Below the pieces are notes generated by a model that made no database searches, had not been told where the DNA came from, and saw only the letters and a list, made by a program, of their open reading frames with translations. Below, in pieces: positions 5,123-57,747 of a stretch of DNA of 64,000 bases; the first letter of the stretch is position 1, and every line of letters starts with the position of its first letter. The stretch comes from a virus. A program made the position numbers and the translations under genes. The stretch is from the IMG/VR virus record IMGVR_UViG_2974791188_000001, positions 5,603 to 69,602 of that record, one strand, 5' to 3'.

Positions 5123-6079
5123 ATGACTTTTAACGCCGTTAAGGTTGAAAAGCTGGCTAGCTACGGCTTGGAGCTGTTGCAGCGTCAGATTGTTCTTCCT
5201 AGCCGTATCACCATTAAGAGCGGTGCCGAGTTCCAGGGCGCTCTTGGCGATGCCATCACTATCAAGATCGGTGCTCGCACCAAGGCCCGTCGGGCTAAGA
5301 TCCGCCCCGCTACTGAGGCGGAACGTCAGATCCAGTTCTCGGATCTGACCGAGCAGAAGACCCACGTCACTCTGACTGACCGCATCTACTCGGCTGTTGG
5401 CCTTGAGGATGAAAAGGCCAAGTTGGACGTCGAGGACATTTTCTCGCAGGTCGTTGCTCCGCAGGTTCGGGCTATCGCGGTTGACTACGAGAACCTGTTG
5501 GCTGAGGAAATTGCGGGTGCCCCGTACAAGCACGTTGTGCCTGTCGACCCGGACGAGCCTTACCAGGCTTTCGTTGAGGCTAACCGCCTCTTGGGTCTGT
5601 CGTTCGTTCCGGACGAGAATCGGACCCTGTTGGTTGGTGCCAACTTTGAGGCTGCGCTGCGCAAGTCGCCGCAGTTCATCGCTGCTACCAGCGCTGGTGA
5701 CAACATCGCCGCGAGCCTGTTGGCGCGTGCGACCCTCGGCACCATCAACGGCTACACCGTGGTTAAGAGCTACGCGTTGCCGGCCGATGAGGCTTACATC
5801 ATCCACAAGAGTGCGTTCAGCTCTGCGTGGTTGGCTCCTGTCGTCCCTGACGGCGCTAGCTGGGGTAAGTCGCTGGGTCTGGGTGGCGAAACCGGCATCT
5901 CGCTGACCTGGTTGAAGGATTACGACTTCATGGTTGGCCGCGACCGTTCACTCCTGCACTTCTACACCGGCGTCAACACCACGATTGACGAGCCGGACGT
6001 GAATGCGGACAACGAGATCGTCGCTGCGGGTGGTTTCCTCCGTGGCGTCAAGCTGGTTATGCCTGCTTACAGCTCCTGA
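5123..6079 (+). CDS. major capsid protein (HK97 fold)
   Basis: 318 aa after scaffold gene; composition and length typical of actinophage HK97-like capsid subunits. Confidence 0.85.
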   Translation: MTFNAVKVEKLASYGLELLQRQIVLPSRITIKSGAEFQGALGDAITIKIGARTKARRAKIRPATEAERQIQFSDLTEQKTHVTLTDRIYSAVGLEDEKAKLDVEDIFSQVVAPQVRAIAVDYENLLAEEIAGAPYKHVVPVDPDEPYQAFVEANRLLGLSFVPDENRTLLVGANFEAALRKSPQFIAATSAGDNIAASLLARATLGTINGYTVVKSYALPADEAYIIHKSAFSSAWLAPVVPDGASWGKSLGLGGETGISLTWLKDYDFMVGRDRSLLHFYTGVNTTIDEPDVNADNEIVAAGGFLRGVKLVMPAYSS

Positions 6080-42830: not shown

Positions 42831-43619
42831 TTGAGTGAATTTGACCCTGTAGCGATGCCTAAGCATTACAACGGGTTTTCGTCAGGTGCTCAGCCGATTG
42901 ATATTGCGCGGGACCTGACGTTCTGTGGCGGCAATATCGTCAAGTATGCGGCCCGGTCGACCCGCTTGGATAACGAGCACAACAAGGGTGACCGTGTCGA
43001 GGATCTTCGCAAGGTCATCCAGTACGCGGAGTTTGAGATTGCCCGTCTTGAGGGTGAGCAGTCGCGGCCTAAGCATGCGGCCGATCCGGTTGAGGCGTAC
43101 CTGGACAGTCAGGACGACGCGGACGCGTGGGAGGTGGATGACGATGACGACTACTGCGCGGATGACGACGACTATGGTCCCGCCGATCCGGCACCCGTCG
43201 AAGTAGGCCCCGGCGAGTACTTCCGCGTCACCCGCAACAACTTCCACGTCGGCTTCCCTCCTTACCATCCTGCCGAGGTTGGCGCAGTAGTTAAGTCGGT
43301 TGCCACCCAGCACGGCTCTCACCGATTCCAGTACTGCGAGGCCATGCCTGCAAACACCATCTGGGTTGCCCCGGAGCACTTGGAGCCTTACACCCCGCGA
43401 GTCGGGGACAAGATCCGAGTCACGCCGAACGGCGACGATTACCACAGTGTGAACACTGGCGCGGTCGGTGAGATCGCCAAGGGTGCAGACGAAGACGGCG
43501 ACTACCTCGGATCGTTCGCCGCCACCGACTACACCGACTACGGCATGTTCGGATACGTGGCCGATCCGTTCACCCAGTGGCTCCGACCCGAAGACTTCGA
43601 GCCGGTGCTTGCCCCTTGA
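42831..43619 (+). CDS. DUF3310-like protein with acidic linker and extra C-terminal domain
   Basis: PKHYNGFSSGAQPIDI...IVKYAARSTRLDNEHNKGDRVEDLRKVIQYAEFE resembles DUF3310 core; poly-Asp linker; start TTG 42831 or ATG 42855. Confidence 0.5.
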   Translation: MSEFDPVAMPKHYNGFSSGAQPIDIARDLTFCGGNIVKYAARSTRLDNEHNKGDRVEDLRKVIQYAEFEIARLEGEQSRPKHAADPVEAYLDSQDDADAWEVDDDDDYCADDDDYGPADPAPVEVGPGEYFRVTRNNFHVGFPPYHPAEVGAVVKSVATQHGSHRFQYCEAMPANTIWVAPEHLEPYTPRVGDKIRVTPNGDDYHSVNTGAVGEIAKGADEDGDYLGSFAATDYTDYGMFGYVADPFTQWLRPEDFEPVLAP

Positions 43620-44701: not shown

Positions 44702-45045
44702 AACTGCGTGTTGAGTATGAAATTCCGGAGGATCAGCACGAGCGGGTGCGGTTGCAGGCGAAGCTTTCGGAGCTGGATTCGTTGCTGTCGTGGGTGGAGC
44801 CGTGGAAGCGGACTGTCAGCCTGATTGACGATGATCCGCTACCGGCGTGTGCGACTGAGAAGAAGTCGAGATACCAGCCGGTGTGCGGTAGCTGTCGTGA
44901 GCCGATCCAGGCGACCGAATGGTGGGGCTATCACCAACGCCTGTCCTCATACGTGCATCTCAACGCCCCCTGCTGGCACAACCTGTACGGGGAGGACGTC
45001 AGCGGCCACACGATGATGCTCGGTTCGGGGGGTGTGCCCGCGTGA
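44698..45045 (+). CDS. Cys-containing hypothetical protein
   Basis: 115 aa; TTGA overlap. Confidence 0.4.
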   Translation: MKLRVEYEIPEDQHERVRLQAKLSELDSLLSWVEPWKRTVSLIDDDPLPACATEKKSRYQPVCGSCREPIQATEWWGYHQRLSSYVHLNAPCWHNLYGEDVSGHTMMLGSGGVPA

Positions 45046-45971
45046 CCTTTCTAGTTGCTATGCGGGGGCTTCCCGCGTCAGGCAAGACCACCCGTGCCCG
45101 CGAGATCGCTAAGGAAACCGGGGCTGTCGTTGTCGGCCGCGACTTCGAGCGCTTCCAGATGTTCGGGGAATGGTGGACCGGTAAGAACGAGCATGAGAAT
45201 GCCGTGACGGTTGCGCTTAACGCTAAGGTTCGGGCCTTGCTTAAGGACGATCAATCCGTGATCGTTGATAACACCCACGTTCAGCTTCGCCTCCTCAAAG
45301 CCTGGGCCAAGATTGCGTCCGAATGTGGGGCAACTTTCCACGTCGAGGACGTGAAGACGCCGGTCGAAACCTGCCTGTTCCGCGACATGCAGCGCCAAGC
45401 CAACGGTGAGCGCTGGGTCGGCGAGGACGTCATTAACCGAATGGCTAAGCAAATCAACTGGGGGCAGGTTAAGCCCGTCCCGCCGATCGTGGTCAAGCCG
45501 CTCGAACCGTGGGAAACGCAATGGGATGCACCAGCCGCGATCATCGTCGACATTGACGGCACCCTGGCCCACATGCGGGAAGTCAACGGCACTGTTCGTA
45601 GCCCGTATGACTACAGCCGCGTTCACGAAGATGCCGTAGACCCCGCTATCCGCCAGATGGTCATTGACTATGACGCGATGGACGGAGACGTGATCGTCTG
45701 CTCTGGCCGAGACGATGACTGCCGGGACGTCACCGAAGCATGGCTGTGCGCCCACGGCGTGCCGTTCGATGAGCTGCTGATGCGGCCGAAGGATGCACGG
45801 GACGCTAACGGCAACAAGCTCCCGGACTGGATCGTTAAGTACAACCTGTTCAACGAACACATTCGCGGCCAATACGACGTGGAATATGTGCTCGATGACC
45901 GCAATCAGGTTGTGGACATGTGGCGGGCGCTCGGGCTTAAGTGCCTCCAAGTGCAGCCGGGAGACTTCTGA
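45042..45971 (+). CDS. polynucleotide 5'-kinase / 3'-phosphatase (Pnkp-like)
   Basis: N-terminal P-loop GLPASGKTT kinase; C-terminal HAD phosphatase IIVDIDGTL; GTGA overlap start. Confidence 0.75.
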   Translation: MTFLVAMRGLPASGKTTRAREIAKETGAVVVGRDFERFQMFGEWWTGKNEHENAVTVALNAKVRALLKDDQSVIVDNTHVQLRLLKAWAKIASECGATFHVEDVKTPVETCLFRDMQRQANGERWVGEDVINRMAKQINWGQVKPVPPIVVKPLEPWETQWDAPAAIIVDIDGTLAHMREVNGTVRSPYDYSRVHEDAVDPAIRQMVIDYDAMDGDVIVCSGRDDDCRDVTEAWLCAHGVPFDELLMRPKDARDANGNKLPDWIVKYNLFNEHIRGQYDVEYVLDDRNQVVDMWRALGLKCLQVQPGDF

Positions 45972-46246
45972 TGGCAGACGAACCGAACGTTATCGAACTC
46001 AAGTCGCCTAGCGAGAAGGTCATCACCCTTGTGCATCCCTTCCCGCCTGGTATGGCGGCGCAAGTCCTTGAAGAACTCAAGATCATGCGCGGCGGGTTCG
46101 ACGAAATGATTGGCGACCTCCAAAAGCGTGTCGATCAGATGCGCGCGGCGGGCCTTGTGGAGCCTGCCCCGGTCGCTTACCTCGATGATTACCGGGCACG
46201 TAAGGCCGCTAAGGCGAGTGCTCTTGAACCTAAGGATATTGGTTGA
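45971..46246 (+). CDS. hypothetical protein
   Basis: ATG in TGATG overlap. Confidence 0.45.
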   Translation: MADEPNVIELKSPSEKVITLVHPFPPGMAAQVLEELKIMRGGFDEMIGDLQKRVDQMRAAGLVEPAPVAYLDDYRARKAAKASALEPKDIG

Positions 46247-47541
46247 TTCTCGACGACCCTAAGAACAACAACTATGCCGTGACTGTTGTGCGTGTCCCGG
46301 CTACCTATGATCTGGACGGCTTGGACAACCTGGTGGGTGTCAAGGTGTTCAATTCGCAGATCCTCACTCAGCGTGACGGTGTGGAGCCGGGTGAGTTGCG
46401 CCTGTACTTCCCGGCCGAGGTTCAGATTTCGGCCGAGTATGCCGAGTACAACAGCCTGTACAGCAGCGGCGCGGGCCTTAACCGTGACCCGGAAGCGAAG
46501 GGCTACTTGGCTAAGAACCGACGCGTGCGGGCTATCAAGCTTCGCGGTCACCGTTCGGACGCACTCCTGATGCCGCTCGATTCGCTCAAGTGCTTCACTG
46601 GCCGCTACGACTACCTGCAAGAGGGCGACACGTTCGACGTGATCGAGGGCCACGAGGTTGTCCGCAAGTTCGAGCTACCCCGCAACGAACCGAAGGCCGG
46701 CGCAACTAAGCTCGCTAAGGTTCTTAAGCGGGTAGACAAGGCTCTGTTCCCTGAGCACCTGTCGACCGACAACTTTTTCCGCAACTCGCACCTGCTCGAC
46801 GCGAAGCGTGAGGTTGTCATCACCCAGAAGTTGCACGGCACGAGCATCCGCGTCGGCCGTGTCCCGGTGCGCCGCGAGAAGGGCCGCTGGGAACGTTTCC
46901 TCAACCGCCTGGGCGCTGCCACCCCGGACTTTGCTCACGAGCCGGTATTCGGCTCCCGCAAGGTCATCAAGGAGGCCGACAACAGCCGCCAGAACCACTA
47001 CTACGGTTCGGACATTTGGACCCGTAAGGGTGCTGAGATTGTCGCGGACATTCCGGACGGCTTCATTGTTTACGGCGAGCTGGTCGGTTGGACCGAGGAC
47101 GGTTCTCCGTTGCAGAAGGGCTACACCTACGACGTGCCTAAGGGCCAGTCGGAGCTGTACGTGTATCGGGTTGCACGTATCGACGTGAACCGGACGCTCA
47201 CGGATCTGCCTTGGGACGGTGTTAAGCAGTTCTGCAAGGAACGCGGCTGGAAGCATGTTCCGGAGATTGATCGGATCATTCCGGACTTCTGGGAAGCTTT
47301 GGTCGGCGAGACGATGGTCGAGTTTGTTGAGGACATGATGGACCGCCGCTACACCGAGGCTTACCACAGCCCCATCGACAAGCCGGTCGCGCTGTCGGAC
47401 CCCAAGACTGTCGATGAAGGCGTATGCATCCGTCAGGACGCAATCGCCCCGCTCATCCTCAAGGCTAAGGCCCCGAAGTTCTTGCAGCACGAAACCAAGC
47501 AGCTCGATAAGGGCGAAGTCGACTTGGAGAGCGCGGCCTAG
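46243..47541 (+). CDS. ATP-dependent RNA ligase (Rnl2-like, KxHG motif I)
   Basis: nucleotidyltransferase motif I ITQKLHGTS (cf. T4 Rnl2 KIHGTN); TTGA overlap start. Confidence 0.6.
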   Translation: MILDDPKNNNYAVTVVRVPATYDLDGLDNLVGVKVFNSQILTQRDGVEPGELRLYFPAEVQISAEYAEYNSLYSSGAGLNRDPEAKGYLAKNRRVRAIKLRGHRSDALLMPLDSLKCFTGRYDYLQEGDTFDVIEGHEVVRKFELPRNEPKAGATKLAKVLKRVDKALFPEHLSTDNFFRNSHLLDAKREVVITQKLHGTSIRVGRVPVRREKGRWERFLNRLGAATPDFAHEPVFGSRKVIKEADNSRQNHYYGSDIWTRKGAEIVADIPDGFIVYGELVGWTEDGSPLQKGYTYDVPKGQSELYVYRVARIDVNRTLTDLPWDGVKQFCKERGWKHVPEIDRIIPDFWEALVGETMVEFVEDMMDRRYTEAYHSPIDKPVALSDPKTVDEGVCIRQDAIAPLILKAKAPKFLQHETKQLDKGEVDLESAA

Positions 47542-47732
47542 TGCAGAACGGGCAATCGCAGTGTTACGTGGCGTTCCCCGGCCACCAATTTGACGTGGGA
47601 TCGTTGCGCCTCGCATACGACCAGCTCATTGGCATGGGAGTTCCACGTACCCGAAAGCTGACAATCGAATCCGTGCCCAAGGTGGGCGACGAGAAGTGCG
47701 ACGGGATCGCATTTGTGGAGGTAGTTCCGTGA
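47541..47732 (+). CDS. hypothetical small protein
   Basis: 63 aa. Confidence 0.35.
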   Translation: MQNGQSQCYVAFPGHQFDVGSLRLAYDQLIGMGVPRTRKLTIESVPKVGDEKCDGIAFVEVVP

Positions 47733-48568
47733 CCGTACATCTTTGGGCGCAAAGCCTCGACGACAAAGAGCTACACCCCGTCCACCCATTCCAGTTCCCT
47801 GGCGGCGAATGGCACATCCAACTCGCATTCGACGACCCCAAGCGGTCCTACCAGTGGATCGCAGTCGTCTACGGGGCCAGCGCCGAAGACCTCGTGAAGG
47901 CAAGCCTGCTGGCCGACATTGCGTTGGAACGCGAGGAGCACTCCGTACTGCTCATCCCCTACCTGCCTGCGGCACGGGCAGACCGGGGAGTCCCGCTGGG
48001 ATTGAGTGTGTACGGCGGGATCATTAACGTTGCCTGCTTCGGTGACGTCGTCACCCTGGACGCGCACAACCCGGAAGCTGCCTACCGGGAAGTCAACGGG
48101 CTGGTGAATCTGTCGGCTACCCCGCTGGTCACCGCGACCGTCCAGTACCAGGACACGTTCACCGGGGTCATCGCACCCGACAAGGGGGCCGCGGATCGGG
48201 CAGGAGACGTAGCCCGCGCGCTCGGCGTCGAGCTGGTCGTTGCAGACAAGGCCCGCGACTTCGACACCGGACGGATCACTGGTCTTAGCTGCCCGAAAGT
48301 CGACCCTAAGGGCAACTACCTGGTGGTCGATGACATTTGTGACGGCGGCGGCACCTTCATGGGACTGGCCGAAGCGACCGGCCTGCCGCAAGATCGACTG
48401 TCCCTGTGGGTCACGCACGGCATCTTCTCGGGTAACGCGGCCAACCTGCTCAAGCACTACTACAAGGCTGTTTACACCACCGACTCTCACCCCGGTTCGG
48501 GGCAGCTCGGCATGTGGACGGTCAAAACCCCCACGTGGGCATACATGTTCAGAAAGGTCCAAGCATGA
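47729..48568 (+). CDS. ribose-phosphate pyrophosphokinase (Prs) homolog; candidate Adps of NARP1
   Basis: PRPP-binding loop LVVDDICDGGGT and Prs-like topology; GTGA overlap start. Confidence 0.72.
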   Translation: MTVHLWAQSLDDKELHPVHPFQFPGGEWHIQLAFDDPKRSYQWIAVVYGASAEDLVKASLLADIALEREEHSVLLIPYLPAARADRGVPLGLSVYGGIINVACFGDVVTLDAHNPEAAYREVNGLVNLSATPLVTATVQYQDTFTGVIAPDKGAADRAGDVARALGVELVVADKARDFDTGRITGLSCPKVDPKGNYLVVDDICDGGGTFMGLAEATGLPQDRLSLWVTHGIFSGNAANLLKHYYKAVYTTDSHPGSGQLGMWTVKTPTWAYMFRKVQA

Positions 48569-50043
48569 CCAAGTTCGCACCCATCGCTGCACTGATGCAG
48601 ACCGATGCTTACAAGCTTGACCACCGCAACCAGTACCAGTTGGCCGGCCGCGTTAGCCGTGTCTACTCGAACTACACCAACCGTAAGAGCCGCATCGACG
48701 GGGTCGACCACGTTGTGCACTTCGGGTTGCAGGCGTTCATCCAGAAGAACCTTGTGGAAGCGTTCGAGCCGTTCTTCGCGGCCGACGAGGATCTGGTGTG
48801 CGACCTGTACGAGGAGCGGGTTACGCAGATCCTTGGCCCGAACACGATTGGTTCGGATCACATTCGGGCCTTGCACCGTAAGGGCTACCTGCCGCTTCGG
48901 TTCTCTGCTCTGCCGGAAGGTACGCCGGTTCCGATCCGGGTTCCGTCGTTCGTCGTGGAGAACACCGAGGACGAGTTCTTTTGGCTGACCAACTATGTGG
49001 AGACGGCGCTTAGCGCTGGCGTGTGGCAGGCGTCTACGTCTGCGACGATTGCCCGCGAGTACCGGAAGATCCTCGACCAGGCCGCCGAGGCTACCGGTGG
49101 TGTCCGTGAGGCTGTCGACTTCCAGTGCCACGACTTCTCTTACCGGGGCATGTCGTCTCAGGAGTCGGCGCAGCTTAGCGGCGCTGCCCACCTGCTGTCG
49201 TTCAGCGGCACCGATTCGCTGGTGGCCTTGGACTGGATTGACCGCTACTACGGCGGCGAGTACGTCGCGGGATCAGTTCCAGCCACCGAACACTCGGTGA
49301 TGTGCACCGGCATTGAAGCCGTGGGCGAACAGGAGTTGTTCTCTAAGCTGCTGGACCTGTACCCGACTGGCATCTTCTCGGTGGTGTCTGACACGTTCGA
49401 CCTGTGGACGGTCCTGACCGAGTACCTGCCAGCACTTAAGGACAAGATCCTGGCGCGCGACGGCAAGCTGGTGATCCGCCCGGACTCTGGCGACCCGGAG
49501 AAGATCATTTGCGGAGACCCGGACGCCGAGACGGGGACCGCCGAATGGTTTGGTGTCGTCCGGCTGCTTCGGATGGCGTTTGGTTGCACCTGGAATGAGG
49601 CTGGCTTCCGCGAGTTGAACTCGCATGTAGGGGTCATCTACGGCGACTCCATCACCCTCGAACGCGCTAAGAGCATCACCGCGCGACTCGAATCTATGGG
49701 CTACGCATCCACCAACGTCGTGTTTGGTGTCGGCTCATACACCTACCAGCACAACACCCGCGACACGTTCGGCTCCGCGATGAAAGCCACATGGGCTGAG
49801 GTCGACGGTAAGGGCGTCAACCTGCTTAAGGACCCCATCACTGATGACGGCACGAAGAAGTCGGCTACGGGACGTCTGGCAGTCGTTAACAGCGAGTACG
49901 GCGGAGACCTCAAGCTCATCGAACGGGCAACCCCCGAAGCTGAGCAGTGGAGCCTCCTCAAGCCCATCTGGGAAAACGGACAGTTCGTACAGCGAGTTAC
50001 CTTCGCCGATGTACGGGCAACCCTGGCTAACGCGGGGGCTTGA
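48565..50043 (+). CDS. nicotinamide phosphoribosyltransferase (NAMPT/NadV) homolog; candidate Namat of NARP1
   Basis: TDAYKLDHRNQY...FSYRGMSS...SGTDS NAMPT family signatures; ATGA overlap start. Confidence 0.78.
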   Translation: MTKFAPIAALMQTDAYKLDHRNQYQLAGRVSRVYSNYTNRKSRIDGVDHVVHFGLQAFIQKNLVEAFEPFFAADEDLVCDLYEERVTQILGPNTIGSDHIRALHRKGYLPLRFSALPEGTPVPIRVPSFVVENTEDEFFWLTNYVETALSAGVWQASTSATIAREYRKILDQAAEATGGVREAVDFQCHDFSYRGMSSQESAQLSGAAHLLSFSGTDSLVALDWIDRYYGGEYVAGSVPATEHSVMCTGIEAVGEQELFSKLLDLYPTGIFSVVSDTFDLWTVLTEYLPALKDKILARDGKLVIRPDSGDPEKIICGDPDAETGTAEWFGVVRLLRMAFGCTWNEAGFRELNSHVGVIYGDSITLERAKSITARLESMGYASTNVVFGVGSYTYQHNTRDTFGSAMKATWAEVDGKGVNLLKDPITDDGTKKSATGRLAVVNSEYGGDLKLIERATPEAEQWSLLKPIWENGQFVQRVTFADVRATLANAGA

Positions 50044-50044
50044 G

Positions 50045-50347
50045 TTGGCTGACGGTAGCTGGTGGGCCTTGGAGAATCCGGGCCGATACAGGATCGAATC
50101 ACTCAAGTGCGACGTTGAGGTCGACTGGCCTGCGTACTCATTCGGCTCTCTCGAATCGCCACGGCCCCGGAAGTATCTGACACTAATCGAACTGACTAAC
50201 GGCCGAACCACCACGGTGCTCAAGGCGTACACCGACCCGGACACGGACGAGAGCATTGTGGCGGCTTACGGCAAGGGCCAGCTTAAGGAGCTAAGCGTCT
50301 ACCTCGATGAGAAGCCCGACGCTTTCTCGTGGCGGAAGATCCACTAG
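50045..50347 (+). CDS. hypothetical protein
   Basis: TTG 2 nt after NAMPT stop; ORF open from 49844. Confidence 0.4.
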   Translation: MADGSWWALENPGRYRIESLKCDVEVDWPAYSFGSLESPRPRKYLTLIELTNGRTTTVLKAYTDPDTDESIVAAYGKGQLKELSVYLDEKPDAFSWRKIH

Positions 50348-51227
50348 TTGGGTTACGGAGCTGCCGCACAATACCCCGGCGACACCCGCGTCTGGGTATG
50401 GGACTACACAGGCCCCAAGGGACAACGGGGCCATTGGGAGGACAAAACTGAACACTCGGAAACTAGCTCTCGACAACCTCATAATGCTGGGGGTAGCAGG
50501 CTCCCAGCTCTACGGGACACAGCTTGACGACGGCGACAATGACCAAATGGGGGTGTGCATCGAGCCTCCAAGTCACGTCATCGGGCTAAGCCAATTCGAG
50601 CAATGGCAGTACCACAGTGCAGGCAACGGCGTCAGGTCCGGAAGTGAAGACCTCGACGTCACCGTGTACTCGCTACGGAAGTGGACCCGGCTAGCAGAAC
50701 AGGGCAACCCGACTGTCCTGCTGCTCGGGTTCACCCCCGATGAACTGGTCCTTGAGGACTCGTTCTGGGGTGCGCAACTCCGCTCCAATATGGACATGTT
50801 CATGTCCCGGCAGGCCGGATCGCGGTTCCTCGGCTACCTCGACTCCCAGCGCAAGCAGATGCTAGGGCTTACCGGCCGTAAGCATTCCAACCGCCCGGAG
50901 CTGGTTGAGCAGTACGGCTACGACACCAAGTTTGCCTACCACGCCGTCAGGCTCGGTATGCAGGGTGTGGAGTACCTGACCACCGGGCACATGGAACTGC
51001 CCATGAAGCAGGACTACCGGGACTACCTCATCGACATTCGGCAAGGCCGGGAGTCGAAAGAAGACGTGGTGACGGTCATCAACCTGTACATCGACCTACT
51101 GCGCAAGCTCAAGCATTCGCCGGATCTGCCGCCACGCGCTAACCGGGTGGAGATCGACGCCTGGCTTGAGGTCATGCACGAAACGTTCTGGACGTCGCAG
51201 GGGCGGACACTCGCCAATGTGGCTTGA
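50307..51227 (+). CDS. Pol-beta superfamily nucleotidyltransferase
   Basis: GVAGSQLYGTQLDDGDNDQMGV fits hG[GS]-x10-DxD; helical C-terminal domain. Confidence 0.5.
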   Translation: MRSPTLSRGGRSTSWVTELPHNTPATPASGYGTTQAPRDNGAIGRTKLNTRKLALDNLIMLGVAGSQLYGTQLDDGDNDQMGVCIEPPSHVIGLSQFEQWQYHSAGNGVRSGSEDLDVTVYSLRKWTRLAEQGNPTVLLLGFTPDELVLEDSFWGAQLRSNMDMFMSRQAGSRFLGYLDSQRKQMLGLTGRKHSNRPELVEQYGYDTKFAYHAVRLGMQGVEYLTTGHMELPMKQDYRDYLIDIRQGRESKEDVVTVINLYIDLLRKLKHSPDLPPRANRVEIDAWLEVMHETFWTSQGRTLANVA

Positions 51228-51537: not shown

Positions 51538-51609
51538 TCCCGTATAGCTTAATTGGCAGAGCGTCCGGTTGTTACCCGGATGGTCCAGGTTCGATTCCTG
51601 GTGCGGGAG
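51538..51609 (+). tRNA. tRNA-Asn (GTT)
   Basis: manual cloverleaf: acceptor tcccgta/tgcggga, D-arm gctt-aattggca-gagc, anticodon loop ttGTTac, T-arm ccagg-ttcgatt-cctgg. Confidence 0.75.
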
Positions 51610-51725
51610 CTTAGAGTAGATTGTTTCGGCTCCGTTTCGTAGAACACTCAGACGTCAATCCAAACGGGCAGCACTCGAAATCACTTACCCATGTGGGTGT
51701 CACTGGTTCATTGTTCGGGTGATCT

Positions 51726-51796
51726 GGGGCGATAGTTTAGTGGTAGAACGGCGGTCTCCAAAGCCGCTCGCCGGGGTTCGATTCCTCGTCGCCTCG
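51726..51796 (+). tRNA. tRNA-Trp (CCA)
   Basis: acceptor ggggcga/tcgcctc, anticodon loop ctCCAaa, T-arm cgggg-ttcgatt-cctcg. Confidence 0.75.
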
Positions 51797-51860
51797 CCGC
51801 GCTTGGCTGTGCGCGTAAACAGTCCGCCGCTGCCGACCGGCGTAAAACGGTACGGCTTCC

Positions 51861-51933
51861 GCCTTAGAAACCGAATTGGCTAGGTGCCTGACTTCCAATC
51901 AGGATTTTGCGGGTTCAAGTCCCGTCTAAGGCT
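51861..51933 (+). tRNA. tRNA-Gly (TCC)
   Basis: perfect 7-bp acceptor gccttag/ctaaggc, anticodon loop ctTCCaa, T-arm gcggg-ttcaagt-cccgt; short D-stem. Confidence 0.7.
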
Positions 51934-52036
51934 CAATGGGACGCCAGAGATAAACGCTGGTGCGGTAGAAGCTGACCCGATTCAGAAACCCGCCGATTCC
52001 CGATCACCGATGGCTGCCGGTATATGCAGTTTCTAA

Positions 52037-52112
52037 CTCTCCGTAGCTCAGTTGGTCTTAGAGCAGGGCACTCTTAATGCTCGGGTCGCAGGTTCGAGTC
52101 CTGCCGGGGAGA
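52037..52112 (+). tRNA. tRNA-Lys (CTT)
   Basis: acceptor ctctccg/cggggag, D-arm gctc-agttggtctta-gagc, anticodon loop ctCTTaa, T-arm gcagg-ttcgagt-cctgc. Confidence 0.75.
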
Positions 52113-52150
52113 CGTAGTGGGAGACGGGGGTTCGATTCCCTCCATGCGCG
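52113..52150 (+). pseudogene. tRNA-like 3' fragment (T-arm plus acceptor-like) without a matching 5' half
   Basis: ggggg-ttcgatt-ccctc T-arm-like element 38 nt after tRNA-Lys; no complementary acceptor 5' strand found. Confidence 0.3.
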
Positions 52151-52358
52151 CTGTAGCTTAATGGTAGAGCACCCACGCTTTGCAAATATGTTCCGGATGG
52201 CCCGCTCAAGGGATACGGCGCATAGAGCTAAGAGGTTGTAAGCCCGTAAAGCCCAACCCTTAGTCTCCGCAGGTTCGCCACCGAACTACCTGCGTTATCA
52301 AAACCCACGTGAATTGAGGCCGAAGGGCCGGTGGGCCTTAGTTGGAAGGGTGGACCCA

Positions 52359-52441
52359 GGGCTTGTGGCGGAATTGGCAGACGCGCCGGATTCAAAATCC
52401 GGTACTCATTGAGTGTGTGGGTTCGAGTCCCACTAAGCCCA
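52359..52441 (+). tRNA. tRNA-Leu (CAA)
   Basis: acceptor gggcttg/taagccc, anticodon loop ttCAAaa, long variable arm, T-arm gtggg-ttcgagt-cccac. Confidence 0.75.
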
Positions 52442-52442
52442 C

Positions 52443-52655
52443 ATGGAAAACACTGACATTCACAACCGGTTCGCCTTCCACCCGGCCACCACGGCTGAAA
52501 AGAAGGGTGCCCACGGCAGTATCCGAGAGGCAATGCTGTCGACCGCGCTCTACGTGAACAACAACGTTCCGGACGGCCGCGAAAAGTCTCTGGCTATCAC
52601 CGCCCTGGAAGAGGCTATGTTCTGGGCCAACGCTGCCATCGCACGAGCAGTGTAG
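52443..52655 (+). CDS. hypothetical protein
   Basis: 70 aa, starts 2 nt after tRNA-Leu. Confidence 0.45.
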   Translation: MENTDIHNRFAFHPATTAEKKGAHGSIREAMLSTALYVNNNVPDGREKSLAITALEEAMFWANAAIARAV

Positions 52656-52882
52656 TGGCAATCGTCCTGGGGGTCGGTGACGTCGACAAGATCACCGATC
52701 CCGGCCACCTAGAAGCGCTCAGACGCCTCGAAATGATCGCCGCCTACACAGTGGACGACCACGAGATGGTCGACCTGAACGCTATGGCACTTAGCGGTGC
52801 GTGGGCCACTCCCGCGTACCAACCATCCGAAATTGGCTCCAAGGCTGGAAAGAAGCTTCGGGTCATGTATTCCAAGAAGTAG
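52655..52882 (+). CDS. hypothetical protein
   Basis: 75 aa; GTG in TAGTG overlap. Confidence 0.4.
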   Translation: MAIVLGVGDVDKITDPGHLEALRRLEMIAAYTVDDHEMVDLNAMALSGAWATPAYQPSEIGSKAGKKLRVMYSKK

Positions 52883-52891
52883 GAGAATCCT

Positions 52892-53263
52892 TTGGGTTTC
52901 CGTGATCTGTTTACTCCCCGTACTAAGCGTCAGAAGAAGGCTAAGGGTAAGGGTGAGCAGTTGGGCCGCGCGATCGGCGAACTGACTGTGAGTGCGCAGG
53001 GCTTTACCGAGTCCGTCATCACTCCCCGCGTGGGTGGCAAGCTCCCCATGTCGAACGGCTCCCCGTTGGAGTCTCGTGGCCCGGTTCGGCCGGCTCCTAA
53101 GCCCCGTAGCTACGAAAGCCCCAGCTACTCGGGCTACGACCATTCGCCCGCGATCGCTGCTGCTGCGGTGTCGTCTAGCTACTCGTCGCCTTCGTACAGT
53201 TCGTCGTGTGATTCCAGCTCGTCTAGCTCGTTCTCGTCTGACTGTGGCGGCGGCGGATTCTGA
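52892..53263 (+). CDS. hypothetical protein with Ser-rich low-complexity C-terminus
   Basis: SSYSSPSYSSSCDSSSSSSFSSDCGGGGF. Confidence 0.4.
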   Translation: MGFRDLFTPRTKRQKKAKGKGEQLGRAIGELTVSAQGFTESVITPRVGGKLPMSNGSPLESRGPVRPAPKPRSYESPSYSGYDHSPAIAAAAVSSSYSSPSYSSSCDSSSSSSFSSDCGGGGF

Positions 53264-53436
53264 TGCTTGAGGCCATCATTGCGGGCTTCTTCACCACCCT
53301 ACTAGTGGGGGTATTCGTCGGATTCGTCTACTGGATGCTCAGTCCGCCGTCCTGGGTCGGCGGTGGCGGCACCTACAAGGGGGGGTTTGATCTGAGTTCG
53401 CCGCAAGGCGTCGCCCTGCTGGTGGCCGCGACATGA
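53263..53436 (+). CDS. tiny membrane protein (57 aa), followed by a 33-aa TM micro-ORF 53433..53534
   Basis: hydrophobic helix; ATGA coupling between the two micro-ORFs. Confidence 0.3.
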   Translation: MLEAIIAGFFTTLLVGVFVGFVYWMLSPPSWVGGGGTYKGGFDLSSPQGVALLVAAT

Positions 53437-53576
53437 TAACCACCGTCCTTAGCGGGATCGGCGCTATCGCGCTCCTGTATGTGCTCGGCTACATACTCGT
53501 CGGGGCCTGGTGCCTTTGGAGCCTAGGCCGATGATCTAACGGGTTTGGTCACGTTCCCTCATCTAAACGTGGCTCT

Positions 53577-53658
53577 ACTAGGTGATGCCCCAATGGCGGG
53601 GCAGCGGGCTGTAACCCCGTGGCGTTTTACGCAGGCAGGTTCGATCCCTGTCACCTAG
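53577..53658 (+). tRNA. tRNA-Tyr (GTA)
   Basis: perfect acceptor ctaggtg/cacctag, anticodon stem gcggg/cccgt loop ctGTAac, long variable arm, T-arm gcagg-ttcgatc-cctgt. Confidence 0.7.
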
Positions 53659-53725
53659 ACGTTTCACCTTCTTCTACGGGAGACCAACCTAACTCTGCTC
53701 CGTCAGGGGGAAGGTGACCTACCAC

Positions 53726-56642: not shown

Positions 56643-57747
56643 TCAACCGACGGCCGCAGATCCGCCACCCGTGCGGGAAACGATTACCACGGTTGAAGAG
56701 GCCGGGAACTATTCCCGAACCTTTATCGACCACGAGCCTCCCGAAACACGGGAAGAGCTGTATCGAATGTTGGAGGTTCCCCGTGGGTATTCCATTGTGG
56801 GTGACATCACTTATCGCAACCGTGAGCTTGTTAACGGCAGCACTGTATCCGCCTACAACTACAAGCTCCGCGAGCTACCCCAACCCCTGGACTTCGACGG
56901 CCTTGCCGAACGGGTCCTAAAGTCCCCGCCCGCTAACCCAATCAATCAGCCGGGTCCATACTGGTTTGTCTTCCAGGCCGGTGACTTGCAGCTCGGGAAG
57001 ATTGCCCGCGACGGGTCTACTGAGCAGATCGTGGAAACGTACATGCAGTCCGTTCGGGCTGCTGTGGTCGAGTATGAGAGCTTGGCCGACGAGTTCGGCG
57101 TTTCTGGCGTCCAGTTGTCCTTCCCTGGCGATTGCATGGAAGGTGTGGTGTCCCAGGGTGGGCGGAACATTTGGCTCACTCAGGAGACGATCACGGAGCA
57201 AACGCGGATCTTCCGGCGTCTGCTGCTGTGGACGGTCGACCAGTTCGCTCCGATCGCTAACCACGTGTACGTCGATGTGGTCAACGGCAACCACGATGAA
57301 GCTAACCGGCAGGTGAACACTAAGCCTGGCGATGGTTGGGCTACCGAGTGCGCTATCGCCTTGTCGGATGCGATGGCCCTTAACCCTGGCGCTTACGGGC
57401 ATGTTGAGGTCCGGGTGCCGGATTCCTGGTGCGGGCATATGACTGTGCCGGTCGGGGATTCTCTGGTCACGGTGGCTCACGGTCACCAGTGGCGGCGCGG
57501 TAAGGGTATGGGTTGGTGGGCTGAGCAAGCCCTTAACTTGCAGTCCCCGACTACTTCGGGTGTTTTGCAGCACGGACATATTCACACCTACGAGATCGAG
57601 ACTACGCGCGACCGCACTCGGATCTCGTCCCCCACATTCGACACCGGCTCCGATTGGTTTAGGGAGATTCACGGTGGCGATTCTAAGTTGGGCGGTTTGG
57701 TGTACCTGTTGCGGTCTAACGAAATTTCGAGAGTGAGTTTGGTATGA
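56617..57747 (+). CDS. calcineurin-like metallophosphoesterase
   Basis: VVNGNHD and VAHGHQW...GHIH metal-binding motifs. Confidence 0.6.
   Translation: MGVLAALLSQPTAADPPPVRETITTVEEAGNYSRTFIDHEPPETREELYRMLEVPRGYSIVGDITYRNRELVNGSTVSAYNYKLRELPQPLDFDGLAERVLKSPPANPINQPGPYWFVFQAGDLQLGKIARDGSTEQIVETYMQSVRAAVVEYESLADEFGVSGVQLSFPGDCMEGVVSQGGRNIWLTQETITEQTRIFRRLLLWTVDQFAPIANHVYVDVVNGNHDEANRQVNTKPGDGWATECAIALSDAMALNPGAYGHVEVRVPDSWCGHMTVPVGDSLVTVAHGHQWRRGKGMGWWAEQALNLQSPTTSGVLQHGHIHTYEIETTRDRTRISSPTFDTGSDWFREIHGGDSKLGGLVYLLRSNEISRVSLV

Follow-up and report, generated by a model that had tools for sequence, protein, structure and literature searches.

A polynucleotide kinase/phosphatase and an Rnl5-like RNA ligase as a predicted RNA-repair pair beside NARP1 genes in Gordonia phage Octobien14

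In phage T4, the polynucleotide kinase/phosphatase Pnkp (PseT) and the RNA ligase Rnl1 reverse the cut that PrrC makes in tRNA-Lys, the first enzyme healing the ends and the second sealing them. The mycobacteriophages Cjw1 and Omega also encode a Pnkp (gp89 and gp136, respectively) and an RNA ligase (gp93 and gp162). Zhu, Yin and Shuman characterised both Pnkp enzymes (J Biol Chem 2004; cited in PMC3706429), and the GenBank notes on both list kinase, 3'-phosphatase and 2',3'-cyclic phosphodiesterase activities. Pope et al. (2013) proposed that Pnk, RNA ligase and tRNAs, which co-occur in phage clusters J, E and L, act jointly in RNA repair (PMC3706429); proposals of a counter-defence type are already in print for the Cjw1 and Omega proteins, and a screen of LeBron genes repeats the RNA-repair idea (PMC13148394). 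Here, we analyse the orthologous pair, gp86 (Pnkp) and gp88 (RNA ligase), in a stretch of 64,000 nucleotides (hereafter the window; positions 5,603 to 69,602 of the IMG/VR record IMGVR_UViG_2974791188_000001) and compare it with these systems.

The region 44900-47700 of the window is identical over its full length (100%, megablast) to Gordonia phage Octobien14 (NC_060134.1 / MH976515.1), a temperate siphovirus that infects Gordonia terrae 3612 and encodes an integrase and a repressor; adding 5602 to a window coordinate gives the coordinate in the Octobien14 record. The original prediction, read from motifs in the window sequence, had proposed a P-loop kinase fused to a HAD 3'-phosphatase and, one small gene later, a ligase, together making an RNA healing and sealing pair. 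GenBank genes 86-88 of NC_060134.1, annotated as 'polynucleotide kinase', 'hypothetical protein' and 'RNA ligase', coincide exactly with its coordinates, and a single ORF (open reading frame) of 91 residues, gp87, separates the two enzyme genes. The pair is real but already known, since GenBank annotates the genes, the orthologous Pnkp was characterised in 2004 and the RNA-repair hypothesis for the actinophage pair has been published. We consider it probable, though well short of certain, that the phage has an RNA-repair pathway in which gp86 heals the ends and gp88 seals them, with the RlaP-family protein gp93 probably a third member. As such, the pair is a clean example of 'heal and seal' RNA repair in a Gordonia phage that brings little new biology, and one in which motif reading from the sequence alone recovered real enzymes. 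What the present analysis adds is incremental: the Rnl5-like architecture of the ligase, RlaP as a third component, the assignment of the neighbouring genes to NARP1 and the finding that the two modules are repeatedly linked. The last of these is the most interesting lead.

The healing enzyme is the more straightforward of the two. All three motifs named in the original prediction were found where it had placed them; in gp86 these are GLPASGKTT at residues 9-17 and DIDGTL at residues 170-175 (see Table 1 for nucleotide positions). The fusion is borne out by Pfam, with AAA_33 matching residues 4-137 (E = 1.6e-22) and HAD_PNKP residues 164-309 (E = 1.6e-47), so that a kinase domain (approximately residues 1-140) is followed by a HAD phosphatase domain (residues 164-309), colinear with T4 Pnkp. 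PHROG 505 'polynucleotide kinase' matches the full length (E = 8e-99), and gp86 aligns end to end with Capnocytophaga Pnkp1 (PDB entry 4xrp, residues 13-312, E = 1.4e-36) and with T4 Pnkp (1ltq, residues 5-301, E = 6.6e-24). In a four-way alignment, gp86 has 55% identity to Cjw1 gp89, 51% to Omega gp136 and 32% to T4 Pnkp. The essential residues of the T4 kinase are K15, S16, D35, R38, D85 and R126 (PMC2831316). K15 is kept in gp86, D35, R38 and R126 correspond to D34, R37 and R118, and S16 is conservatively changed to T16; around the position of D85 gp86 reads V-D-N-T, its Asp shifted by one position towards the N-terminus, an arrangement shared with the active Cjw1 and Omega enzymes and with the Pnkp1 of 4xrp. 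The phosphatase residues of T4 Pnkp are reported to be D165, D167, R176, R213, D254, D277 and D278 (Wang and Shuman 2002). Their counterparts in gp86 (D170, D172, R186, R223, D262, D285 and D286) do not vary among the four aligned sequences. On sequence grounds, gp86 is solidly placed in the T4 Pnkp family, and its identity to the Cjw1 and Omega enzymes suggests that it would likewise have kinase, 3'-phosphatase and 2',3'-cyclic phosphodiesterase activity on polynucleotides.

The sealing enzyme gp88 is matched by the Pfam family RNA_ligase (PF09414, residues 189-399, E = 2.7e-13) and by PHROG 968 'RNA ligase' (E = 2.4e-106). Its relatives at E <= 1e-5 number more than 1700, and identity to gp88 among the best 120 is 49-84%; the annotated RNA ligases of Cjw1 and Omega are each 56% identical. 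The predicted motif I, KLHG, lies at residues 196-199, and motifs I (K196), III (E279), IIIa (YVYRV, 306-310), IV (E392) and V (K407/K409) are invariant across 37 aligned relatives. Residues K170, E227, E312 and K326 of the Naegleria gruberi RNA ligase NgrRnl (PMC7261155) correspond to these motif residues. gp88 thus has the full motif set of the covalent nucleotidyltransferase superfamily, including the lysine nucleophile and the Glu and Lys residues that bind metal and phosphate. The Pfam and PHROG matches of both proteins exceed chance by a wide margin, and with the catalytic motifs the pair stands as a bona fide end-healing enzyme and a sealing enzyme of the RNA ligase family.

The label 'Rnl2-type' that the original prediction gave to this ligase did not hold. 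Searches of gp88 against PDB sequences gave no useful match, whether the query was gp88 alone or a profile of 37 sequences (a match of the profile to CapV was due to chance, E ~0.9), and the family assignment thus rests on a fold search and on hidden Markov model (HMM) libraries. The AlphaFold model of gp88 (predicted local distance difference test, pLDDT, 86; predicted template-modelling score, pTM, 0.82) has an N-terminal oligonucleotide-binding (OB) domain at approximately residues 13-112, a linker, a nucleotidyltransferase (NTase) domain at approximately 189-410 and one short C-terminal helix. Using Foldseek against the PDB, the 13 best matches were all NgrRnl (6vt1 and 5cot among them), which serves as the Rnl5 structural prototype, with E values of 3e-15 to 1e-13, approximately 420 aligned columns and TM scores of 0.66-0.72 on the target (0.70 for the best match, E = 3e-15). 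T4 Rnl2 (2hvr) followed at E = 2.7e-7, with 279 of the 432 residues aligned and TM scores of 0.36/0.47; T4 Rnl2 and Trypanosoma brucei REL1 together lie at E ~1e-7 with TM scores of 0.32-0.37 on the query. Archaeal Rnl3, Rnl1 (E = 4e-3 for T4 Rnl1) and DNA ligases (E ~1e-3) come far below NgrRnl. Weaker matches at ranks 30-31 are to chains labelled E. coli tRNA synthetase / SYFA-SYFB; reading these as phenylalanyl-tRNA synthetase would fit the PheRS B2-like OB fold of the Deinococcus ligase DraRnl (PMC1807946). The HMM libraries agree with this ranking: the sole NCBIfam model matched by gp88 is TIGR02306 (Deinococcus DRB0094, i.e. DraRnl; 2.2e-5), which is also matched by 32 of the 37 relatives, against one of the 37 for the Rnl2 model TIGR02307. 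For the N-terminal β-rich domain, the Pfam PHA02142 OB domain matches residues 13-112 below its cut-off (E = 1.6e-4) and is found in 12 of the 37 relatives at E <= 1e-3 (best 1.7e-8).

Rnl5 ligases are defined by an N-terminal OB module and no C-terminal appendage, the protein ending about 30 residues past motif IV (PMC1807946; PMC4408790). gp88 has this order of domains, its catalytic domain occupying the C-terminal two thirds, and nothing is appended to its NTase domain: after motif V there is just the helix 411-422, and E392 of motif IV is 40 residues from the C-terminus (432). DraRnl and NgrRnl share this build and NgrRnl provides the best whole-length structural matches, although these enzymes are not partnered with a Pnkp as gp88 is. 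An Rnl2 enzyme would have its motif I lysine near residue 35, whereas that of gp88 is at 196, behind the OB domain, and the Rnl2 C-terminal domain is absent. Taken with the fold ranking and the HMM counts, this tells against classing gp88 as an Rnl2-type ligase. The one Rnl2-like trait that we found is motif I itself, QKLHGTS, which is invariant in the 37 relatives. The motif I of T4 Rnl2 is KIHGTN, and the Rnl2 form is K-x-H-G-T-N/S.

The two genes also travel together. We examined 80 viral loci encoding gp88 relatives, which fall into 41 ligase clusters at 70% identity, with a neighbourhood of 10 kb. In 64 of the 80 loci and 33 of the 41 clusters, a Pnkp homologue falls inside this neighbourhood of the ligase homologue, without exception in the same orientation; both gene orders occur, and the genes are directly adjacent (gap <600 bp) in 26 loci. 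A pattern-based scan of one genome per prokaryotic species (n = 185,579) recovered the ligase clade in 26 species genomes, namely 20 Actinomycetota, five Bacteroidales metagenome-assembled genomes (MAGs; 26-29% identity) and one Minisyncoccia MAG, with a Pnkp near the ligase in 17 of the 26 loci. The small genes of the window do not follow this pattern. gp87 is variable filler rather than a conserved partner: considered as a possible adaptor, it has no family in Pfam, NCBIfam or PHROG, has a tblastn match in one of the 80 loci and is unlike the ORF at the same position in Cjw1. gp89 and gp92 were likewise considered as partners and are not conserved. We also noted three loci in which the ligase match spans 1.72-1.78 kb instead of the usual ~1.3 kb while still covering query residues 1-432 (L106 8001-9776, Mycobacterium colombiense; L107 8001-9776, Nocardia thailandica; L108 8001-9719, a Rhodococcus MAG), which suggests that these genes hold an insertion, for example an intein, an intron or a mobile element.

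Among the closest described systems, Cjw1 shares the gene order of the window, the Pnkp being followed by small ORFs and then the ligase, and tRNA genes are present. In Cjw1, however, neither NARP1 nor RlaP lies beside the pair; the gene after the ligase in Cjw1 and Dumbo, which we considered as a candidate RlaP or Adps, encodes a helix-turn-helix (HTH) protein. In Omega the Pnkp and ligase genes are approximately 11.7 kb apart, and both of these phages infect Mycobacterium rather than Gordonia. The T4 system shares with gp86 and gp88 the Pnkp family, its architecture and essential residues and the heal-then-seal logic, and T4 also carries an RlaP member, NrdC.11 (PMC12776372), as the window carries gp93. 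It differs in that its repair genes are scattered where those of the window are clustered, in that a trigger and target of the PrrC kind are known for T4 but not for Octobien14, and in its ligases: T4 has Rnl2 besides Rnl1, and gp88 is neither. The Capnocytophaga gingivalis Pnkp1-Rnl-Hen1 complex (4XRP) contains the closest solved relative of gp86 and also a ligase on a separate polypeptide. Its Rnl is outside the top 50 structural matches of gp88, and no Hen1 methyltransferase is annotated in Octobien14.

From the enzyme families, the intact catalytic residues, the domain architecture and the conserved gene linkage we infer a pathway of four steps that would benefit the phage by countering a nuclease. 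A metal-independent RNase of the host, or one borne by a prophage, would cut an RNA of the translation apparatus, producing a 5'-OH end and an end that bears a 2',3'-cyclic or 3'-phosphate. In gp86, the C-terminal HAD domain would strip the 3' or cyclic phosphate to give 2'-OH and 3'-OH, and the N-terminal P-loop domain would phosphorylate the 5'-OH with ATP. Where the 3' nucleotide had been lost, RlaP could restore one or two nucleotides. Finally, gp88 would self-adenylylate on Lys196, pass the AMP to the 5'-phosphate and join the ends by the classical lysyl-AMP pathway; healing of the T4 type leaves a 2'-OH, which would be compatible with a ligase of the gp88 type. In keeping with this role, gp88 is the sole ligase annotated in the genome.

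The proposed third member, gp93, is encoded in the same orientation as the ligase, 2.8 kb further downstream, and matches Pfam RlaP (PF10127) with 101 bits against a cut-off of 23. The family, which is named for its association with RNA ligases, adds one or two nucleoside monophosphates to damaged RNA 3' ends and helps to restore tRNA function after over-trimming (PMC12776372; PMC7824862). An RlaP homologue is within 10 kb of the ligase homologue in seven of the 80 viral loci. In one relative (L077) Pnkp, RlaP and ligase are adjacent genes; two Nocardia loci (L091 and L092) have the order RlaP..Ro..ligase-Pnkp and a third locus (L107) RlaP..ligase..Pnkp. In the sister phage Trax, the same Pnkp-ligase-NARP1-RlaP block is followed by a YrlA-like RNA, a Ro/TROVE protein, a prim-pol and seven tRNAs. 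The annotated start of gp93, ATG 50307, overlaps gp92 by 41 nucleotides, while the Pfam match begins at residue 58; the Trax RlaP (244 residues, 70% identical) has its first residue opposite M60 of gp93, which is encoded by the next in-frame ATG (50484). The annotated start is thus probably too far upstream, with the conserved part starting at ATG 50484.

Several points weigh against an RNA-repair pathway with an Rnl5-like ligase. The ends left by PIN-type (VapC) tRNases, which are widespread in actinobacteria, do not require a Pnkp. In cluster J (Omega-like) genomes the Pnkp and ligase are more than 10 kb apart, as Pope et al. had reported. The literature that we searched reports no activity for gp86, gp88 or any member of the ligase clade, nor does it contain biochemical work on the ligases of Cjw1, Omega or LeBron. 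At the level of the family, gp88 is distant from Rnl5, with approximately 15% identity in the structural alignment; its TIGR02306 score is 23.5 bits against an equivalog cut-off of 151, aligned over residues 66-205 only, and its motif I is KLHG rather than the KLDG of Rnl5 (NgrRnl tolerates D172A, a change of the motif I Asp; PMC7261155). It is also about 90 residues longer than NgrRnl, with insertions in the linker and the NTase domain. Since the architecture fits Rnl5 and membership at the sequence level fails, gp88 is, on the strength of its model, best called a member of an Rnl5-like sister clade rather than an Rnl5 enzyme. DraRnl homologues in Mycobacterium phages have been noted before (PMC4408790), and it is conceivable, if unlikely, that the actinophage clade is a distinct RNA ligase subfamily that combines Rnl5 architecture with an Rnl2-like KxHG motif I and has its own substrate preference.

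What is known of Rnl5 enzymes also sits awkwardly with a simple T4-like picture. Those that have been characterised depend on ATP and Mn and seal 3'-OH/5'-PO4 nicks in duplexes with an RNA 3'-OH strand (PMC4408790), and the sole physiological role shown for one of them, DraRnl, is in recovery from DNA damage, its loss delaying genome reassembly after irradiation (PMC5397189). The analogy to T4 Rnl1 and the anticodon loop is for these reasons not direct. With its nick-sealing build, gp88 would more likely act on a break whose ends are kept together by base pairing, as in the stem or stem-loop of a tRNA or in an rRNA helix, than on a free single strand. By analogy, we would expect breaks in structured RNA to be its targets, and not an anticodon-loop specialisation of the T4 Rnl1 type; for the large actinophage clade as a whole, the modelled architecture leads us to expect a preference for nick sealing.

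The same facts raise an alternative in which the pair repairs DNA or RNA-DNA junctions during phage replication and recombination, healing 3'-phosphate/5'-OH DNA breaks and sealing nicks with ribonucleotide 3'-OH ends, rather than mending cut host RNAs. The surroundings would suit such a role: the genes lie among those annotated as DnaB, SSB, RusA, Erf and exonuclease, and the Octobien14 annotation lists no DNA ligase. T4 Pnkp is, moreover, active on DNA ends too. For Rnl5 enzymes, the 5'-phosphate strand and the template strand may both be DNA (PMC5397189). Against this, the Foldseek matches of gp88 to DNA ligases are at E ~1e-3 compared with 1e-15 for RNA ligases, and the gp88 model has no C-terminal OB domain of the DNA ligase type. 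The recurrent partners of the pair (RlaP, Ro/TROVE, the Y-RNA-like gene and tRNA arrays) are centred on RNA, which favours the RNA-repair role over DNA repair, and we consider the DNA alternative unlikely.

The genes directly downstream of the pair were foreseen in the original prediction as an NAD module followed by a tRNA array, and this is what is found: the module is most likely NARP1, a demonstrated counter-defence NAD+ reconstitution pathway of phages (PMC12774641), and six tRNA genes lie further on. gp90 and gp91 are annotated as a ribose-phosphate pyrophosphokinase and a nicotinamide phosphoribosyltransferase, but judged by sequence comparison they are most likely the NARP1 enzymes Adps and Namat. 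For gp91, the PDB entries 9W5X/9W5W, identified as SpbetaL1 Namat (PMC12774641), match at the value given in Table 1, against 5e-62 for NAMPT, and R, Y and H stand at the clamp positions at which SpbetaL1 Namat has R40, F392 and Y396. gp90, probably the Adps, has its best support from PHROG 619 (Table 1); TIGR01251 is matched below its cut-off (2.8e-23) and true Prs structures weakly (1e-10). In the window, as in all 38 loci holding both, the Adps homologue is directly upstream of the Namat homologue. NARP1 is a neighbour and would not itself be part of the RNA-repair chemistry.

In 38-39 of the 80 viral loci (13 of the 41 clusters), NARP1 genes fall in the 10-kb neighbourhood of the ligase homologue, in several orders: Adps-Namat-Pnkp with gaps of <600 bp and the ligase approximately 3 kb away (28 of the 80 loci), Pnkp-ligase-Adps-Namat(-RlaP) in four loci and ligase-Adps-Namat in others. 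The NARP1 literature that we consulted on this point does not mention a linkage to Pnkp or RNA ligase. That this repeated, rearranged linkage reflects functional coupling, rather than mere co-location of accessory genes, appears to us decidedly unlikely. Two forms of coupling are possible: the Pnkp phosphatase or kinase might also process phosphorylated ADP-ribose species for NARP1, or one class of actinobacterial defence might both cut RNA and burn NAD+, so that a phage would need both repairs.

Taken further, the first form of coupling becomes a rival to RNA repair, in which the Pnkp mainly serves NARP1, its phosphatase or kinase acting on phosphorylated ADP-ribose derivatives and feeding NAD+ reconstitution in the manner of the Macro-domain phosphatase of NARP1-AP, with the ligase link secondary. 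The tight Adps-Namat-Pnkp order just described speaks for this, as does the way that the Pnkp-ligase pair directly abuts Adps-Namat in the window, and phages do extend NARP1 with a phosphatase; that known NARP1-associated phosphatase, the 'phage phosphatase' of the aRES paper, which we considered as a Pnkp-like candidate, is however a Macro-domain protein and not a HAD Pnkp (bioRxiv 10.64898/2026.01.28.702374). The pairing also persists without NARP1: of the 64 loci with both Pnkp and ligase, 38 lack NARP1 genes in the 10-kb neighbourhood, and the two genes are directly adjacent in 18 of these 38. In addition, the kinase and phosphatase residues of gp86 are those of the polynucleotide-specific T4 Pnkp, and the Cjw1 and Omega enzymes act on polynucleotides (GenBank note; Zhu 2004 as cited in PMC3706429). 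We regard a Pnkp dedicated to NARP1 as most improbable. Separately, gp82 (42831-43619, + strand), annotated 'nucleotide kinase', has an N-terminal DUF3310 (E = 1e-6). A phage deoxynucleotide kinase triggers the NAD+-depleting Kongming defence (PMC12774641), and the presence of a nucleotide kinase alongside NARP1 in one phage is perhaps noteworthy for that reason.

Returning to RNA repair as the probable role of gp86 and gp88, the original prediction had extended it to a counter-defence island, and we judge this to be reasonable because the pair shares a compact + strand block with NARP1 (a proven anti-defence type), RlaP and the six tRNA genes (Table 1). With an RNA-repair pathway adjoining NARP1 and a tRNA array, this lytic gene block would gather several measures against immunity of the abortive-infection type. 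The genes from approximately 42 to 51.5 kb all share the + strand, with overlaps between start and stop codons. Between 42.1 and 54 kb this strand shows nothing that resembles a promoter or a terminator, and in a scan of 42-54 kb such sites were fewer than in shuffled sequence; this gives no evidence for a separate transcription unit within 42-54 kb and, together with the overlapping codons, fits co-transcription. The pair, NARP1, Ro and the Y-RNA-like gene in sister phages point to modular anti-abortive-infection islands in actinophages, which would be open to existing genetics (bacteriophage recombineering of electroporated DNA, BRED) in G. terrae or M. smegmatis.

Table 1. Window coordinates of the predicted repair genes, their motifs and the genes downstream.
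Feature	Position	Strand	Evidence or remark
gp86, Pnkp	45042..45971	+	Pfam, PHROG, PDB alignments
P-loop GLPASGKTT, gp86 kinase domain	45066..45092	+	Aligns with T4 GCPGSGKST
HAD motif I DIDGTL (DxDxT), gp86 phosphatase domain	45549..45566	+	Aligns with T4 D165-V-D167-GTL
gp87, 91-aa ORF	45971..46246	+	No Pfam, NCBIfam or PHROG family
gp88, ATP-type RNA ligase, Rnl5-like architecture	46243..47541	+	Pfam, PHROG, TIGR02306, AlphaFold + Foldseek
Ligase motif I KLHG; K196, predicted AMP-accepting lysine	46828..46839	+	Q195, K196, H198, G199, T200, S201 invariant in 37 relatives
gp89, 63-aa ORF, no family	47541..47732	+	Seen in 2/80 loci
gp90, PRPP-synthetase-like, probably Adps of NARP1	47729..48568	+	PHROG 619 1.5e-68
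gp91, most likely Namat (nicotinamide ADP-ribose transferase of NARP1)	48565..50043	+	PDB 9W5X/9W5W 2.6e-137
gp93, RlaP-family Pol-beta nucleotidyltransferase	50307..51227	+	Pfam PF10127 9.1e-29; PHROG 388 1.3e-63
tRNA array Asn(GTT), Trp(CCA), Gly(TCC), Lys(CTT), Leu(CAA), Tyr(GTA)	51538..53660	+	ARAGORN; Rfam

The tRNA array bears on a further possibility, that the enzymes process or remodel RNA for the phage's own ends, through the maturation of phage tRNAs or a Y-RNA-like transcript or the manipulation of host RNA metabolism. The array and a tRNA-like element are just downstream of the block, and every phage cluster with the pair also has tRNA genes (PMC3706429). Over-expression of the LeBron Pnk and RNA ligase is toxic in M. 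smegmatis (PMC13148394), although toxicity on over-expression is not specific evidence. The six tRNA genes are ordinary and continuous, without introns or permutation (ARAGORN), and Pfam, NCBIfam and PHROG scans showed no nuclease gene at 45-51.5 kb, so that nothing in the locus would make breaks that need healing; we find this explanation very unlikely. Lys, Asn, Tyr, Trp and Leu tRNAs are among the described targets of anticodon nucleases and mycobacterial toxins.

The tRNA-like element was seen as a sub-threshold match to the Rfam YrlA family (29.5 bits against a gathering threshold of 69, E = 0.004 in a 10-kb search) at 52103-52200 (+ strand), in the 246-nucleotide spacer between tRNA-Lys (52037-52113) and tRNA-Leu (52359-52442). 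A T-arm GGGGGTTCGATTCCCTC comes first, then a short hairpin and then a D-arm GTAGCTTAATGGTAGAGC, as is usual in the tRNA-like domain of Y RNAs. The outer stem has a 5' strand that coincides in part with the 3' end of tRNA-Lys. Shuffled sequences fold at least as well (z = +1.1), the sequence is identical in Kudefre and so offers no variation for covariation, and a Ro/TROVE gene was looked for in the window without one being found; the element may be a decayed tRNA remnant. A 368-residue gene product labelled 'porphyrin biosynthesis' proved to be an AAA_5 ATPase. The YrlA-like RNA of Trax is a better match, covering the full YrlA model with 44.1 bits (E = 1.5e-6) at L004 15923-16039, which is approximately 57351-57467 of Trax MK967378.1. 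Directly downstream of it, at L004 16092-17768, is the gene for the Ro-like TROVE protein (Pfam TROVE, 7.7e-16). The Trax RNA overlaps a tiny annotated ORF (gp93 of Trax, 45 residues), which is probably a mis-annotation.

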